NCBI GenBank assembly: GCA_017444295.1
Contig: JAFSWY010000172.1
Span: 7,548 to 71,547 of the forward strand
Reading direction: 5' to 3'
Length of the DNA: 64,000 nt
DNA from: Selenomonadaceae bacterium
GTDB lineage: Bacteria > Bacillota > Negativicutes > Selenomonadales > Selenomonadaceae
Shown piece after piece: positions 3,596-50,300 of the stretch. Position numbers and translations under genes: made by a program. Under the pieces are notes generated by a model that had not been told where the DNA came from, did no database searches, and worked only from the letters and a program-made list of their open reading frames with translations. Position 1 is the stretch's first letter, and each line of letters opens with the position of its first letter.

Positions 3596-3924
3596 AAATA
3601 GAGGGAAACGACCAGCGAGCCGCCCGCAGGGCCTTGGAGGGCAGGCGGCAGCGGTAGCCGAAACAGGCTTCCCTCTGGTGTAGGCGAAAGGGCGGATGTC
3701 TATTGATGCTTGACGGACAGGGAACCCCTTCGGACTGACTGATGAGTGCCACCTGTGAAGCGAGAGGATGTCCATCGAGGCAGGGGCGCGGAAACGTGCC
3801 TGAGGCTATATGGAATCGTCATTTGCACCGTCATCAGGAGGAAAGAACAGAGACACGAGGTTTTCACGAATGCCAATCTACGGGTAGACCGGCTTGCAGC
3901 GGTGTTGCAAGCCGGTTTTATTTT
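3596..3924 (+). ncRNA. Candidate structured small RNA, about 330 nt, family unknown
   Basis: Bounded by the promoter above and a strong terminator. No ORF with a ribosome-binding site. Complementary segments: 3600-3607/3669-3676 (8 bp) and 3710-3719/3769-3778 (9 of 10 bp). Eleven GGA triplets, including two GGATGTC. Confidence 0.5.
3889..3924 (+). terminator. Intrinsic terminator of RNA gene 1. It probably also stops the convergent glycosyltransferase operon.
   Basis: CCGGCTTGCA-gcggtg-TTGCAAGCCGG hairpin followed by TTTTATTTT. It lies 7 nt from the stop codon at 3931 of the minus-strand gene. Confidence 0.8.
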
Positions 3925-6020: not shown

Positions 6021-8591
6021 CTAATTCAGCAGGGCAAACCATTCCATCTGGTGCCAGAGGAGGTCGTTTGCCGCAAGAGGTGCGCCCGTTCGTTCGCAAA
6101 GCGGTTCCCCGATGATCCCCACAGCCCCGTCCCCGGCCCGGGCGAGCTGCTGCAAAAGATGCGCCCACATCACATAGGGCAGGGGCTTCCCGTCGAGGAA
6201 ACAGGGCCGCAGCCACCGGCATTCCTCCATCAGGGAACGGCACACCAATGCTCCGTTCATGCTTCCGGAAGGATATTTCCCCCTGCAAAGGAGTTCCTGC
6301 CAAAGGGATTCCGGGGAAACCATCCCGAAGACGGGATCCACCCGGACATCCGTGTACGGATCTGTCGGGGCAAATTCCCTCCTGCCGTCCGCAAACAGTA
6401 TCCCAAAGGAGAAATCCTGGGATTCCGTGCAGGCGACCATTTTCATAAGCTTGTCCTCCTGCATGGAATATCCTGGCAGCAGCCACTGCACATATTCCCC
6501 CGTTGCCTCCCGGGAAAGCTGCCGGAAAACATCCTCTCCGGACATATCGTCCAGGAAGCGGATGCCCTCCCGCAAACCTTCCGGCAGCTGCGCCTGTTCC
6601 GTCGATGCCCCAATACCACAGACAAAAATCTCCTTGAAGGGATATGTCTGGGTCATGGCAAGACCCAAATTCCTGCATAACTCCTCATCGTCACCCAAAT
6701 AAGGGATGGCAACCGTGACCCGCTTCCCCTGCCGCAAGACCTTTTCCTCAAGGTATGCCTCCGCAATGAGCACGCTTGCCCCCATGAGATTGCGCAGGAC
6801 ATCGGGCCGCACGTCCCCGCTGTAGCGCAGGGGGATTTCCTCGCAATAGGGCTTGAGGTCGAAGTCCATCGGCTCCTCGATGGCAGAGCCGGGCGAAACG
6901 GTCTCCCCCTTGCCCAGCTTCTCGTAGCAGGTCTTGAGATAGGAGGCCGTCGGCGTGTAAACGGAATACTTCGCCACGTTGTTGATCCAGCTCGTCGCCA
7001 CCTTTGCGGCATACTGCTCATCGCTGCGCCAATGGTAATGGGCCAGGTGCAGATCCGGCACAACGGTCCAGGGAACCTTCTCTCCCGTGGCCTCCCAGCA
7101 GGCATAATGGCAACCCTGCATGAGACGGAAGCCCGGTCGAAGCGCAATCTCCCCTCCCACAGCCAGCTTCTGCCCGGGGGCGAAGTCCCTGCTGCGCCTG
7201 CAGGGACGGGAGAGCAGGAACCTTCCTTCCTCCTCGTGCTGGCGAAGGGGCTCGTAGAGCCGCCATTCCAGCTTGTGCAATTCCTCCGGGGAAAGTCCCT
7301 CCAATACCTCCCTGCAGGATTTTTCGCTGTCGGTATTGACCAGAAACTCGTCTGCGTCCAGGGGCAGGACGAGGTCGGCATGATGCTCCCTCACGGCCTC
7401 CCGCAAAAGCTCGTTCATAACCTCTGCATGGGCAAGCTCCACAGGCCGGAGCATCCGAACGAAAACAGGCAGTCCCTCTGCCTGAAGATTTTCGAGAATC
7501 TCTCCCGTCTTGTCCGCGCTGCTGTGGTTGGCAATGATGATCTCGTCGGCAAAGGCCAGGCTATGGCGGACAAAGCTCTCGATGATGTCTGCCTCATTCT
7601 TCACCATGGAGACAACGACAATTTTCCGCCCGTTTTTTTCTCTTTCCTGCAAACAAACCGCTTCCCTTCCATCAAGAATGGCACGGATTCCATCCATGCA
7701 CTGCGCATAGGCGTCCCATGCGCCGCACTCCAGAAATTCCGGCATTCGGTACGGTTTCACCCGATCATACTCATCCCGCAAAAGGGCCAGAAGATGCGCA
7801 TAGTCCTCCCGGGTTTCCAGGAACACGCGCCTCCTGTAATACTCCGTGCCCAGTCGGAACCATTCCATCCTGCTTTGCAGGATCACGTCCTTCTGCTGCC
7901 CTTCCTGCTCCCCATGGCGGCGGTAGTAGCTCAAGGAATCGCGGAAAACCGCGCATTTCCCCTTTTCCAGCAGTTCCAGCCACATGGCAACATCCGAGAT
8001 CGTCCTGTAGCCTTTCGCCTCCGCACGCCAGTAATGATGTTGCAGGTCCCGCCTGCGAAAGAGCACTGCAGAAGGCTCGCCGATGTAGTTCCGCATGTCC
8101 CGCAGCATGCGCCGCCCAAGTTCTGCACCGTCGAACACCTGGCAGGTCTCTCCGTTTTCCAGCCCCAGAAAGGAAAGCTTCCCGACCTTGCTTCCCTCCC
8201 CGTCCATCACACCCCGCTGTGAGGTCACAAGCGTTATCCCCGGGTCCCGCTCAAAACATTCCACCATGAGCCGGAGCTTTTCCGGTTCCAGCACATCGTC
8301 ATCCATGAGCCATTGCAGATACTCGCCATGGGCCAAATCCTCAAAAGGCATGAAATTTTCTTCCTTGGTCATTGCCCTTCGGTTTCTCACGTACCGCACA
8401 CGGGAATCCCCGGCATATCCCTGCATCAGCTGCGCGGTCGCCTCGTCGCGGCTGTTGTCGCAGACGATGATCTCGACTTTGGGATAGGTCTGGGCCAGGG
8501 CGCTCCGCAAAGTCTTCTCAAACAACTTCGGGCGCTCATAGGTCGGTATCATAATGCTGACAAGCCCTTGTACGGTCTCCGCTGTAGACAT
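6021..8591 (-). CDS. Three-module glycosyltransferase (856 aa): N-terminal GT2, central GT2-like module, C-terminal GT2-like module
   Basis: N-terminal module: VSIMIPTYERPKLFEKTLRSALAQTYPKVEIIVCDNSRDE. Central module: KIVVVSMVKNEADIIESFVRHSLAFADEIIIANHSS. C-terminal module: VTVAIPYLGDDEELCRNLGLAMTQTYPFKEIFVCG. Confidence 0.8.
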   Translation of the reverse strand: MSTAETVQGLVSIMIPTYERPKLFEKTLRSALAQTYPKVEIIVCDNSRDEATAQLMQGYAGDSRVRYVRNRRAMTKEENFMPFEDLAHGEYLQWLMDDDVLEPEKLRLMVECFERDPGITLVTSQRGVMDGEGSKVGKLSFLGLENGETCQVFDGAELGRRMLRDMRNYIGEPSAVLFRRRDLQHHYWRAEAKGYRTISDVAMWLELLEKGKCAVFRDSLSYYRRHGEQEGQQKDVILQSRMEWFRLGTEYYRRRVFLETREDYAHLLALLRDEYDRVKPYRMPEFLECGAWDAYAQCMDGIRAILDGREAVCLQEREKNGRKIVVVSMVKNEADIIESFVRHSLAFADEIIIANHSSADKTGEILENLQAEGLPVFVRMLRPVELAHAEVMNELLREAVREHHADLVLPLDADEFLVNTDSEKSCREVLEGLSPEELHKLEWRLYEPLRQHEEEGRFLLSRPCRRSRDFAPGQKLAVGGEIALRPGFRLMQGCHYACWEATGEKVPWTVVPDLHLAHYHWRSDEQYAAKVATSWINNVAKYSVYTPTASYLKTCYEKLGKGETVSPGSAIEEPMDFDLKPYCEEIPLRYSGDVRPDVLRNLMGASVLIAEAYLEEKVLRQGKRVTVAIPYLGDDEELCRNLGLAMTQTYPFKEIFVCGIGASTEQAQLPEGLREGIRFLDDMSGEDVFRQLSREATGEYVQWLLPGYSMQEDKLMKMVACTESQDFSFGILFADGRREFAPTDPYTDVRVDPVFGMVSPESLWQELLCRGKYPSGSMNGALVCRSLMEECRWLRPCFLDGKPLPYVMWAHLLQQLARAGDGAVGIIGEPLCERTGAPLAANDLLWHQMEWFALLN

Positions 8592-22432: not shown

Positions 22433-23215
22433 TCAACGGATGGCATCCATATCGTCCAAGCGGGCCAGATAGGACTGCAAACGCTCCAGTTCCACAGGGT
22501 CATCCACCTTCCGCCCGGAATAGAAATACTCCACAGAGAAAGGCTGCTCCTCCAGGGCATCCCTCTTCCCGAGCTGGCGGATGAGTTCCCTGACCGTCCC
22601 CTCATTGCCGTCCACAAAATGCACGTTGTCCGGCAGGATCTCCCGAAAAGTATCCTTGAAGTAATTGAAATGGGTACAGCCAAGCACCAGAGCGGAATAC
22701 CTGGAAAAATCGTAGGGAGCCATCTGCCGCTGCAGATAATCCGAGACCTCCGGGGAACGGAATTCCGCCCGCTCCGCAAATTCCACCAATCTCGGCAGGG
22801 GCAGGAGATCCACGAGATGTTCCCTGTCCACATGCTCGATGAGAACCTTCATTTTTTGCCCGCTGACCGTGATGGGCGTCGCCACCACCAGCACCCGATG
22901 TTCCCCATCCAGATCCAGGGCCCGCTTCGCCGCCGGCTCCATGCCGATAATCGGGATGCCATAGCGGCTCCGCATCTCCTTCACCGCCACGCTCGTGGCC
23001 GTGTTGCAGGCCGTGACGATAGCCTTCACGCCCTTCCCCACAAGAAAGTCAAAGGCCTCCCCAACGAATTCCATGACCTGTTCCCGCGGCTTCACGCCAT
23101 AGGGAACATGATCCTCATCCGCAAAGAAGATGAACTGCTCCCGCGGCAGGACCTTCATGGCATGATGCAGCACCGCCAGCCCGCCGATGCCAGAGTCAAA
23201 AAAAGCGATTTTCAT
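22433..23215 (-). CDS. murI: Glutamate racemase
   Basis: IAFFDSGIGGL...IVTACNTAT...LVLGCTHF. Confidence 0.95.
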   Translation of the reverse strand: MKIAFFDSGIGGLAVLHHAMKVLPREQFIFFADEDHVPYGVKPREQVMEFVGEAFDFLVGKGVKAIVTACNTATSVAVKEMRSRYGIPIIGMEPAAKRALDLDGEHRVLVVATPITVSGQKMKVLIEHVDREHLVDLLPLPRLVEFAERAEFRSPEVSDYLQRQMAPYDFSRYSALVLGCTHFNYFKDTFREILPDNVHFVDGNEGTVRELIRQLGKRDALEEQPFSVEYFYSGRKVDDPVELERLQSYLARLDDMDAIR

Positions 23216-23266
23216 ACACGATTCCTTATTTCAAAAAATACCAACCCCAATGTATTCCAATGTATT

Positions 23267-23390
23267 ATAACGCATAGTTCAAATTTTGCCAACGGCAAAA
23301 TATTCTTATTGTCGTTTCGACGGACTTGTTCCGTCATAACGCATAGTTCAAATTTTGCCAACGGCAAAATATTCTTATTGTCGTTTCGAC
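23267..23390. repeat. Tandem duplication of a 55-nt promoter-bearing module (period 69 nt)
   Basis: ATAACGCATAGTTCAAATTTTGCCAACGGCAAAATATTCTTATTGTCGTTTCGAC occurs at 23267-23321 and 23336-23390, separated by the palindrome GACGGActtgtTCCGTC. On the minus strand it reads TTGGCA, 17 nt, TATAAT (23264-23292), facing murI. Confidence 0.85.
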
Positions 23391-23392
23391 AT

Positions 23393-23421
23393 TTGACATC
23401 CTCTTTTTCATTTGCTATACT
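23393..23421 (+). promoter_or_regulatory. Consensus sigma70 promoter of tRNA-Ser
   Basis: TTGACA, 17 nt, TATACT, ending 11 nt before the tRNA 5-prime end. Confidence 0.7.
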
Positions 23422-23432
23422 GAACCTGCTAC

Positions 23433-23521
23433 GGAGAGGTGTCCGAGTGGTTTAAGGAGCTGGTCTTGAAAACCAGTGATGCGGCAACGCAACTTGGGTT
23501 CGAAACCCACCCTCTCCGCCA
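23433..23521 (+). tRNA. tRNA-Ser (anticodon UGA), long variable arm, encoded CCA
   Basis: Acceptor GGAGAGG/CCTCTCC. Anticodon stem-loop CTGGT-CTTGAAA-ACCAG. T-arm GGTTCGAAACC. Confidence 0.9.
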
Positions 23522-47233: not shown

Positions 47234-47557
47234 TCAAAGTGTTTCATAGCGCGGGTGCTCCTTGACATATTCCACGGGACGCGACCAGTCCACGTGGACC
47301 TGCGTCTCGTTCCAGAGCCTGGTCAAGGCCAGCTTGAAACTCTCCTCATCCGCCAAGGGGTCCACCAGTTCCTTCGTAAAATCCATCAAGGTCTCATGAG
47401 GCACTCCCATCTCGTGCTTCGCTGCCAGATACTCCTCCGTCAGCCGCTTGCCTTCCTCATTCGCCAGCACCACATTCGCCTTCTTCTCCGTCGCACTGTA
47501 CTCGATATATCCCAAATCCCTGCCATAGCTGATTGCCACGCTGTATGTGATCTCCAT
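47234..47557 (-). CDS. Hypothetical 107-aa cytoplasmic protein
   Basis: Acidic and non-repetitive, with a ribosome-binding site. A promoter TTGGCA, 18 nt, TATAAT at 47594-47623 (minus strand) is supplied by the repeat module. Confidence 0.6.
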   Translation of the reverse strand: MEITYSVAISYGRDLGYIEYSATEKKANVVLANEEGKRLTEEYLAAKHEMGVPHETLMDFTKELVDPLADEESFKLALTRLWNETQVHVDWSRPVEYVKEHPRYETL

Positions 47558-47596: not shown

Positions 47597-47727
47597 ATAA
47601 CGCAATTGTTCAGGTTTTGCCAACAGCAAAACATTCCGATTAGCGTTTCGACAGGCTTGTCCTGTCATAACAGGTTATAACAGGGGATTCAGATTTTGCC
47701 AAAGGCAAAATATACCCGAATTTTTTC
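47597..47727. repeat. Second locus of the 55-nt promoter-bearing module (two diverged tandem units)
   Basis: ATAACGCAATTGTTCAGGTTTTGCCAACAGCAAAACATTCCGATTAGCGTTTCGAC, then the palindrome GACAGGcttgtCCTGTC, then a second unit containing TTTTGCCAAAGGCAAAA. The architecture matches 23267-23390. Confidence 0.75.
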
Positions 47728-47780
47728 AAGAAATTGCCAAAATTTCTGCCGATATGCCATAAATCCAGTATTGTCAAGAC

Positions 47781-47809
47781 TTGCGCCCACTCTTTTTTTA
47801 TGCTATGAT
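47781..47809 (+). promoter_or_regulatory. Sigma70 promoter of orphan RNA gene 2
   Basis: TTGCGC, 17 nt, TATGAT. Confidence 0.5.
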
Positions 47810-47815
47810 ACTTTT

Positions 47816-48092
47816 AAAGAAGGAACTGCCTGGGATGTGCGTGGACTTTCATATATGTCTAACCTACATTTTTTACAGGGAATCCGATTTGAATCCGACG
47901 GATGCTGGATCGTCCCGAACGAATAGCAGAAAGCGGACTTAGGATACCCACCTGCGAGTCGCAGGTTCTAGACATAAGAGAGGAACGGCATCCTGGACCC
48001 CTTTCTTGGAAGGGATTGCTGACAGATATGGCAGTCCCTTTTCTCGACACTTTCAAAGAACAGCCCTGCTATTTGTCCGGGGCTGTTTTTTT
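47816..48092 (+). ncRNA. Candidate structured small RNA, about 275 nt, family unknown
   Basis: No credible ORF. The 5-prime segment 47816-47830 pairs with 48030-48044 (13 of 15 bp). Further nested helices: 47851-47859/48021-48029 and 47900-47905/47988-47993. Twelve GGA triplets. Strong terminator CAGCCC...GGGGCTG plus T7 at 48061-48092. Confidence 0.45.
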
Positions 48093-48101
48093 GCGCTTTT
48101 A

Positions 48102-50300
48102 TCAAATCTCCTGCGCCAGCCGTTCCGCCAACAGCGTATAGCGTTTCCTCGTGCGGTCGTTCATCACTGCCGTATGGAGTGCCGCCCGGGAGCCCAGAAG
48201 AATCACGAGTTTCTTTGCCCGCGTCACTGCCGTGTAAAGCAGATTCCTCTGGAGCATGATATGGTGGCCGGGCACGAGAGGCAGGAGAATGACGGGATAC
48301 TCGCTGCCCTGGCTCTTGTGGACGCTCATGGCATAGGCCAGCTGCAGCTCGACAAGCTCGCTCCGCTCGTAGTCCACCGCCTGCTCCTCGCTGTAGCGCA
48401 CGGTGACATGGTCTTCCTCCATCGCGGTGATAAACCCGATATCCCCGTTGAACACCTGCTTCGTGTAATTGTTCTTCGTCTGCATGACCTTGTCCCCCAG
48501 GCGAAAGACCTGGACACTGTTCACGAACTCCGGTTTCTCCGGCGACCTCGGGTTGAGTGCTGCCTGCAGGCGGCGGTTGAGGCTATCCACCCCGCAGTCC
48601 TGCCGATGCATGGGGGAAAGCACCTGCACATCGGACAGGGGCGAAAATCCCATGCGCGGCAAAACACCGGTGCAAAGCTCCACGATCATGTCCGCCGTCC
48701 CGGCAGAATCATTGTTCTCAAGGAAGCGGAAATCCCCCTGGAGCGAGCATTGGGGAAGCCTCCCCCCATTGATAGCATGGGCGTTCAATACAATGGTGCC
48801 CGCCCCGTCCTGCCGAAAGACCTCGGTCAGGCAGACGCTTGGGATGACACGGGAACGCAGGATATCCTTGAGCACAGAGCCTGGACCTACCGCCGGCAGC
48901 TGGTCGACATCCCCCACGAGGATCACATGGCACCCATCGGGCACGGCCTCCAGGAAATGCTGCATGAGAACGATATCCATCATGGAAACCTCGTCCAATA
49001 TGATGGCATCCGCCTCCAACTGTTCCTCGGAATCCCTGGCGAACACGGAACCCCCGTCCTGCTGCCCGCCGCCCTGGGCCTCCAGGAGGCGGTGCACCGT
49101 CATCGCCCTGCGTCCTGTCGCCTCTGCCAGACGCTTCGCCGCCCGTCCCGTCGGTGCCCCCAACAGGATTTCCAGCCCCTGGGCCTCCAGCATCTCAAGC
49201 ATCCCCCGAACCACCGTGGTCTTGCCCGTGCCCGGGCCTCCCGTAAGCACAAAGATCCCATGCACCAAAACGGATGCCATGGCCTCCCTTTGCTTGCCGG
49301 CAAGCTCCATTCCCGTGTTTCTTTCCCATTCCTCCACGAGACGATAGGGATCTTCCACTGCCAGGGGCTCCGCCGCCCTTTGCAGATAAAGCAGCTTCTC
49401 CGCTGTCTTTTTCTCCGCAACATAGAGCCAGGAAGGATAGACAAGATTTTTCCCGCCCATGTATTCCACTGCCAGACGGTTCAAGGACAACTGTTTCTTC
49501 AAAACCTCCCGAACATTTTCAGCATCCACCTGCAAGAGTTTGGCTGCCCTTTCCACCAGGGCACCATCGGGAATGCAGCAATGCCCCGAAAGGGAAATCT
49601 GCTGCAGGGCGTAATCAATCCCCGCAGCAACCCGCGCCCCATCGTTTTTCTCCACACCGATGCTGGCGGCGATGGCATCTGCCGTCAAAAAACCGATGCC
49701 ATCCACCTCCTGGGCCAGCTGGTAGGGATGGTTTTCCAGCACATCAATGGCAAAGGAACTGTACTGCTTGAAGATGCGCGCTGCATAGGAGCCGGACACG
49801 CCATGTTCCTCCAGCCACAGCATGATGTCCCGGAGCTCCGACTGCTGCCGGTAGGATGCCGCAATCTTTTCCGCCGTTTTTTTCCCGATGCCGGGAACCT
49901 GCTCCAGGAGACGGGGCTTCTTTTCGATGATATCCAGGGTGTCCGCGCCAAACTTTGCCACGAGCTTCTGCGCCATGACCGGGCCGACACCGTCGATGAC
50001 GCCGGAGGCAAGAAATCTTTCGATGCCCTCCACGCTGGTGGGAGCCGCAATCCTCATGCCCGTCGCCCTGAACTGGTCGCCAAAGCGCGGATGCACCACC
50101 CACTGCCCCCTGAGAGACACCTGCTGTCCCACCAGAGGCGGCACCGAACTCACTGTGACATTCACGCGCCCGTGCTGTTTCAAGGGGCGCAGGCGGAACA
50201 CGGAAAACCTGCCGTCATCGCTGGCAAAGACAATGCTGTCCACAACCCCCTCAAGCTCCTCTGCCGTTTCCATTCCCGGCAGGGCATCCTGCGTCACCAT
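48102..50300 (-). CDS. recD2: RecD2-type ATP-dependent DNA helicase
   Basis: LTGGPGTGKTT, DEVSMMD, the C-terminal SVHKSQGSEYPVIL...YTAVTRAK, and HhH motifs in the N-terminal half. Confidence 0.93.
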   Translation of the reverse strand: MVTQDALPGMETAEELEGVVDSIVFASDDGRFSVFRLRPLKQHGRVNVTVSSVPPLVGQQVSLRGQWVVHPRFGDQFRATGMRIAAPTSVEGIERFLASGVIDGVGPVMAQKLVAKFGADTLDIIEKKPRLLEQVPGIGKKTAEKIAASYRQQSELRDIMLWLEEHGVSGSYAARIFKQYSSFAIDVLENHPYQLAQEVDGIGFLTADAIAASIGVEKNDGARVAAGIDYALQQISLSGHCCIPDGALVERAAKLLQVDAENVREVLKKQLSLNRLAVEYMGGKNLVYPSWLYVAEKKTAEKLLYLQRAAEPLAVEDPYRLVEEWERNTGMELAGKQREAMASVLVHGIFVLTGGPGTGKTTVVRGMLEMLEAQGLEILLGAPTGRAAKRLAEATGRRAMTVHRLLEAQGGGQQDGGSVFARDSEEQLEADAIILDEVSMMDIVLMQHFLEAVPDGCHVILVGDVDQLPAVGPGSVLKDILRSRVIPSVCLTEVFRQDGAGTIVLNAHAINGGRLPQCSLQGDFRFLENNDSAGTADMIVELCTGVLPRMGFSPLSDVQVLSPMHRQDCGVDSLNRRLQAALNPRSPEKPEFVNSVQVFRLGDKVMQTKNNYTKQVFNGDIGFITAMEEDHVTVRYSEEQAVDYERSELVELQLAYAMSVHKSQGSEYPVILLPLVPGHHIMLQRNLLYTAVTRAKKLVILLGSRAALHTAVMNDRTRKRYTLLAERLAQEI

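Follow-up and report, generated by a model that had tools for sequence, protein, structure and literature searches.

The RNA gene at 47781-48092 in the 64,000-nucleotide stretch of DNA that was analyzed (the window) is almost certainly the single ssrS gene of this rumen Selenomonadaceae bacterium and encodes a canonical 6S RNA. The assembly is a MAG of 446 contigs and 2.9 Mb that is 90.7% complete. When the whole window was scanned with Rfam 15 at the gathering thresholds, four matches were obtained: three tRNAs and 6S/SsrS (RF00013). The 6S match, at 47824-48003 on the + strand, scored 67.2 bits versus a gathering score of 46.4 (E=4e-13) and spanned model positions 1-187, i.e., the full length of the model. 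With permissive filters, 6S was the sole Rfam family with a match at E≤1 on 47600-48200, where none of the Csr/Rsm, raiA, or other models had a match at that threshold. The match at 47824-48003 was the only one to 6S in the genome, and a 6S match was found in 40 of 41 relatives (above the cut-off in 37), mostly in a single copy. At 67 bits, the match is of moderate strength, with other families of the class reaching 95-113 bits, and the pairs at the outer end of the closing stem in the Rfam model are noncanonical in this 6S RNA.

The initial annotation had described this region as an orphan RNA gene of ~275 nt, and had stated that a match to a known Rfam family would speak against that description. 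A cmscan-type check matched 6S and neither Csr/Rsm nor raiA. The stand-alone, structured, noncoding gene with its own promoter was upheld, but the gene is not an orphan, as RF00013 scored above its gathering threshold. A "6S-like" function, which had been entered as a caveat, was the correct answer (RF00013, 67.2 bits). The call of an RNA gene was correct, but the find is an ordinary one, of an already known kind (ssrS). The features of the gene are as follows.

47771-47786, + strand: conserved promoter block TTGTCAAGACTTGCGC, the last six bases of which (47781-47786, TTGCGC) are the -35 element.
47801-47809, + strand: extended -10 element TGcTATGAT, 17 nt past the -35 element; TGnTAT(n)AT is conserved there in orthologs.
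47816-48007, + strand: 6S RNA (ssrS) core of ~190 nt, with the RF00013 match and the covarying rod.
47862-47877, + strand: 5' side of the central bubble, ACCUACAUUUUUUACA, which the consensus structure leaves unpaired.
47950-47968, + strand: 3' side of the central bubble; it includes the small hairpin ACCUGC-GAGUC-GCAGGU and matches the 6S consensus CCCACCUG...CAGG.
48008-48044, + strand: 3' hairpin of 13 bp (48008-48020 with 48030-48042), then UUUUCU, directly after the rod.
48061-48092, both strands: distal hairpin that folds on both strands (+ strand, U7; - strand, UUCUUUG).

The predicted fold is consistent with this identification. The minimum free energy of 47814-48092 was -103.5 kcal/mol (z = -5.5 versus dinucleotide shuffles), and RNAalifold applied to 15 family-level orthologs returned the classical 6S rod, consisting of a closing stem, a large central bubble (47862-47877 opposite 47950-47968), and a terminal stem, with compensatory changes in 19 of 49 pairs. 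In an alignment of 48 Selenomonadaceae orthologs, composed of the family orthologs together with Selenomonas, Mitsuokella, Megamonas, and other loci, the 56 pairs of the rod were 89.5% paired, compared to 30-48% when the partners were slid by 1-3 columns. Double changes were present in 21 of the 56 rod pairs (148 cells), a level that was reached by 0 of 500 shuffles. The small hairpin in the bubble was 98.3% paired in the 48 sequences; its stem is almost without variation, whereas its loop varies. It corresponds to the local CCTGCG-agt-CGCAGG hairpin (47951-47965) that had been noticed initially, and it is a conserved 6S feature.

The other helices that had been proposed for this RNA were replaced by those of the rod or of the 3' hairpin. 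The nested helix ATATATGTC/GACAGATAT was only 55.6% paired, and its small excess over shuffles is not meaningful because the loop region is poorly aligned; ATGUCUA pairs instead with UAGACAU at 47969-47975, and this helix was 99.4% paired. Similarly, GCATCC, which had been assigned to GGATGC (47900), is instead part of the 6S closing stem, where its partner is GGGAUGU at 47832-47838. The suggested closing helix between the 5' end at 47816-47830 (AAAGAAGGAACTGCC) and 48030-48044 (GGCAGTCCCTTTTCT) does form 13 of 15 pairs in this genome's own sequence but is not a conserved helix: over the 48 orthologs, 61.4% of the cells were paired versus a shuffle mean of 64.1%, without covariation. Positions 9-12 of its 5' strand vary freely, and its 3' strand is constant across orthologs. 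It was dropped in favor of a local hairpin; the strand at 48030-48042 is an arm of the covarying hairpin at 48008-48042.

The possibility of a small protein encoded by the region was also considered. Mechanical ORF calling finds open frames of 40-79 codons across it (47781-47942 and 47902-48141 on the + strand and 47859-48056 on the - strand). However, 18 of 47 was the largest number of orthologs in which any one frame stayed open, the pairwise indels (149/149) were frame-breaking, with lengths that were not multiples of 3, and the substitutions track base pairing and not codons. Thus, a coding function is exceedingly improbable, in agreement with the earlier statement that there was no credible ORF.

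The promoter that had been identified, TTGCGC-17-TATGAT, is real, is of the sigma-A type, and is kept at the same position in nearly all orthologs. The -35 element TTGCGC (47781-47786) and the -10 element TATGAT (47804-47809) are separated by a 17-nt spacer, and the -10 element is extended by TG (TGCTATGAT). In nearly all Selenomonadaceae orthologs, the sequence TTGTCAAG(T/A)CTTG(C/T), with a T-rich spacer, lies upstream of 6S, and the promoter is at a constant distance from the invariant 5' end AAAGAAGGA. The conserved sequence at the start of the RNA is AAAGAAGG, and we infer that transcription starts at A47816-47818. The failure of a consensus scanner to detect the 6S promoter was due solely to the -35 element, which fits the consensus at 3 of 6 positions.

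The block TTGTCAAGNCTTG (47771-47786), which overlaps or abuts the -35 element, has one occurrence genome-wide, yet it is found at 6S promoters across the family. It is a candidate regulator site, and by analogy with the cre sites of lactic acid bacteria (LAB), a regulator dedicated to 6S synthesis might use it as its operator. Two other readings of the block were rejected. It is not a canonical CcpA cre, as 4 key positions of the cre consensus, TGWAANCGNTNWCA, are mismatched, among them the central CG. Nor is TTGTCA (47771-47776) the -35 element of a second promoter, as no -10-like hexamer is found 16-18 nt farther on. Elsewhere in the window, the tRNA gene at 23433-23518 (+ strand) has a 6S-style promoter at 23392-23425, with TTGACA, a 17-nt T-rich spacer, and TGCTATACT.

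RNAs of the 6S family, such as SsrS of E. coli and 6S-1 and 6S-2 of B. subtilis, mimic an open promoter and bind RNA polymerase. In the RNA studied here, A51 and C52 were invariant in 48 orthologs, as was the context AACC(U/G)AC in the 5' bubble. The start of the pRNA was placed by Rfam alignment to the consensus ...GAgCCgAa... and by the invariant AACC(U/G)AC. On this basis, and by analogy with other 6S RNAs, the predicted pRNA template starts at the invariant C47867 and would yield the pRNA 5'-GUAGGUUAGACAU, which begins with 5'-GUAGGUUAG and has GG at positions 4/5. GG at these positions is reported to be a conserved feature of 6S pRNAs (PMC8414754).

Holoenzyme sequestration and pRNA synthesis are presumed to operate here as in the rest of the 6S family. 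The rod, as an open-promoter mimic, would occupy the sigma-A holoenzyme, the housekeeping form of RNA polymerase, at its active site, and 6S occupancy would damp sigma-A transcription in stationary phase. Upon nutrient upshift, the polymerase would copy the strand of the 5' bubble into a short pRNA, starting opposite C47867. The pRNA would unzip the ATGUCUA/UAGACAU helix, the RNA would refold, and the enzyme would be freed.

The hairpin at 48008-48042 (-17.3 kcal/mol) was present at the 3' site in 15 of 15 family orthologs and also in further Selenomonadaceae loci. In the 48 sequences it was 95.8% paired, with compensatory changes in 10 of 13 pairs, which was reached by 0 of 500 shuffles. Together with UUUUCU it is probably the intrinsic terminator of the 6S gene itself, and the transcript would then probably end there, at ~230 nt. 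The U-tract that follows the hairpin is good in this genome and weak in about half of the orthologs, and therefore the role of the hairpin as a terminator is uncertain; a retained, stabilizing hairpin is also possible. For a plain terminator, the hairpin shows unusual sequence conservation (GGGAUUGCUG...CAGUCCC) across Selenomonas and Mitsuokella. The mature 6S-2 RNA of B. subtilis, which is 211 nt long, includes a "putative terminator hairpin" (PMC10578484). By analogy, the 3' hairpin may be retained in the mature 6S RNA here and act in stability or processing beyond termination. It is conceivable, though on the doubtful side, that the two lineage-specific conserved additions to Selenomonadaceae 6S genes, the TTGTCAAGNCTTG block and the 3' hairpin, have functions of their own.

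The strong terminator to which the 3' end of the RNA had been assigned originally, CAGCCC...GGGGCTG plus seven T, does form a hairpin (-18.9 kcal/mol on the + strand and -14.1 kcal/mol on the - strand) but is probably not the terminator proper of 6S, being a second, distal structure that is shared with the convergent gene recD2. It was found only in this genome (G000) and in G001, where recD2 is the convergent neighbor, and was absent after 6S in the same-genus genomes G002 and G003 and in the rest of the family. The structure at 48061-48092 is probably a bidirectional terminator common to 6S and recD2 and a back-up for 6S, at which read-through from the 6S gene would probably be caught. The RNA is not necessarily 275 nt long; the core is ~190 nt, or ~230 nt with its own hairpin.

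The surroundings of the 6S gene contain the following features.

47234-47557, - strand: gene for a 107-aa protein, the divergent neighbor of 6S, without a Pfam or NCBIfam match.
47609-47716, no strand assigned: two units of a ~70-nt repeat that is dispersed genome-wide and contains the palindrome TTTTGCCAANNGCAAAA; they lie outside the 6S gene.
48102-50300, - strand: recD2 (YrrC-type helicase), convergent, with Pfam HHH_RecD2, OB_YrrC, SH3_13, AAA_30, and UvrD_C_2.

The convergent position of recD2 (48102-50300, - strand) relative to the RNA gene was as first described. Because both flanking genes are on the - strand, a + strand transcript from this region is a unit of its own and not a UTR. 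It is most improbable that the RNA is a 3' or 5' extension of a neighboring mRNA, despite the sharing of the distal terminator (48061-48092) with recD2: the gene at 47234-47557 is divergent and recD2 convergent, both on the opposite strand, the RNA has its own conserved promoter, and the neighbors differ between genera while the RNA stays. The picture is that of an independent unit, with a core of ~190 nt, a conserved promoter, a conserved 3' hairpin, and flanking genes on the opposite strand.

Homologs of the 107-aa protein were found at 66 Selenomonadaceae loci (Selenomonas, Mitsuokella, Megamonas, Anaerovibrio, and Centipeda) with 54-94% identity, and 6S was divergently upstream of the gene at 43 of the 66. 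In the oral Selenomonas/Centipeda group, 6S was not found within 1.5 kb of this gene. The frequent divergent pairing might signal a functional link between the two genes. As a conserved neighbor of 6S, recD2 was rejected; the arrangement was found in G000 and G001 only, and not in G002, G003, or the rest of the family.

The repeat at 47609-47716 is composed of the palindrome TTTTGCCAANNGCAAAA and a second hairpin (GACAGGCTTGTCCTGTC). Four sites are present in the window (47609-47716 and 23262-23399) versus 0.19 expected. Genome-wide, there were 58+49 matches at ≤1 mismatch (~107) and 0 with the reversed control. The units are usually in tandem, with a spacing of 69-71 or 96-100 nt, and several are at contig ends. 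On the opposite strand, 41 repeat units carry TTGGCA-17/18-TATAAT, and the median distance from the end of this -10 element to the downstream start of a long ORF is 33 nt. The repeat at 47609-47716 has TTGGCA-18-TATAAT on the - strand, facing the gene for the 107-aa protein, and the repeat at 23262 faces a minus-strand gene that starts near 23215. The repeat looks like a promoter-bearing family. When the facing of gene starts was tested across the genome, the ORF-based control was nondiscriminating (random positions gave 0.95), and thus only the distribution of distances is suggestive of repeats facing gene starts. The TTTTGCCAANNGCAAAA palindromes were also considered as a feature of stable-RNA genes (6S and tRNA), and this was rejected, as they belong to the repeat with ~107 matches in the genome.

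The function originally favored for this RNA was that of a sponge that titrates CsrA, in the manner of CsrB/CsrC or RsmY/RsmZ, as one of a pair with the RNA at 3596-3924. The stand-alone character of this small RNA, its own promoter and terminator, and its several GGA triplets are indeed reminiscent of CsrB/CsrC and RsmX/Y/Z, and a CsrA is encoded in the genome. The count of 12 GGA triplets was also correct, but the enrichment is weak: 12 in ~230 nt compares to 7.9 ± 1.8 in dinucleotide shuffles (P about 0.01-0.02), and 6% of the same-size windows of the 64 kb have at least 12. None of the 10 GGA triplets in the core is in a hairpin loop of the consensus structure: the 5' end accounts for 1, internal loops for 3, and stem ends, which the triplet straddles, for 3, and the other 3 are wholly within stems. 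The two triplets outside the core belong to the stem of the 3' hairpin. The Csr/Rsm families had no match at E≤1, with 6S alone matching, and csrA is immediately downstream of fliW, the arrangement in which the antagonist of CsrA is a protein. In B. subtilis, CsrA in the fliW-csrA arrangement is antagonized by the FliW protein. In this genome, fliW (7049-7408, a 153-aa frame) is followed after 26 nt by csrA (7435-7593, a 77-aa frame) on G000 C116 (loci L103 and L031); this is a fliW-csrA operon of the Firmicute type in a Negativicute, and its csrA is the only one in the genome. With a resemblance to the RNA at 3596-3924 that is no greater than chance, it is very unlikely that the RNA is a CsrA sponge, and unlike CsrB and CsrC it has no related second copy in the 3596-3924 RNA.

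The comparison of the two RNAs was as follows. The three short blocks that had been listed as common to the 6S locus and 3596-3924 are present and in the same order, but they are at the level of chance and do not indicate kinship. Kinship was rejected in comparisons with shuffles by local alignment (P=0.72), shared 7-mers (P=0.47), and shared 8-mers (P=0.68), and when real 329-nt segments of the window were compared, half of them had as many shared 7-mers. There was no match to 3596-3924 with the Rfam 6S model at E≤1 or with an nhmmer profile built from the 6S RNAs of the family at E≤100. GGA is not enriched in the RNA at 3596-3924 (+ strand), with 11 triplets versus 10.5 in shuffles. At E≤1, its only Rfam match was to an lncRNA and is put down to chance. 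That RNA is kept only in the three same-genus genomes, at 73-75% identity, and has an MFE z-score of just -2.0. With 47781-48092 identified as 6S, the RNA at 3596-3924 therefore stands alone and unexplained.

These results indicate that ssrS (6S RNA) is the proper annotation for the locus, which should be taken off the list of candidate orphan or sponge RNAs. Their significance is mainly corrective, in that the locus lends nothing to a CsrB/CsrC-like pair in this genome. For specialists in 6S RNA, the promoter block, the 3' hairpin, and the family-level synteny with the gene for the 107-aa protein are of modest interest; a limited literature search found no paper on 6S RNA in Selenomonadaceae.

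In comparison with known systems, the RNA resembles E. coli SsrS and B. subtilis 6S-1 (BsrA; RF00013) in its full-length match, length of ~190 nt, rod structure, single copy, and own promoter. It also shares with RF00013 the GGGA...CCCACCUG...CAGG flanks of the bubble and, as predicted, a pRNA with GG at positions 4/5. In these features nothing essential sets it apart from the family, the differences being the moderate score of 67 bits and a U-rich 5' bubble (CAUUUUUUACA). As in B. subtilis 6S-2 (BsrB), a hairpin comes right after the 3' end of the rod; here it covaries and is present in every ortholog examined. In contrast to B. subtilis, with its pair of 6S-1 and 6S-2, there is a single 6S gene. 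The sponge RNAs CsrB/CsrC and RsmX/Y/Z differ from it, as here there is no model match, no GGA in a hairpin loop, weak enrichment, and a CsrA that is partnered with FliW. The neighbors of the 6S genes of LAB are rarA and uspA, whereas here they are the gene for the 107-aa protein and, in this genome and G001 only, recD2; and the TTGTCAAGNCTTG block, unlike the LAB element, is not a cre site. However, both have a conserved element at the -35 region (cre sites in LAB and TTGTCAAGNCTTG here). The 6S genes of LAB are monocistronic, with their own promoter, a downstream terminator, and synteny at the family level (PMC8414754), and the 6S gene described here is like them in each of these respects.
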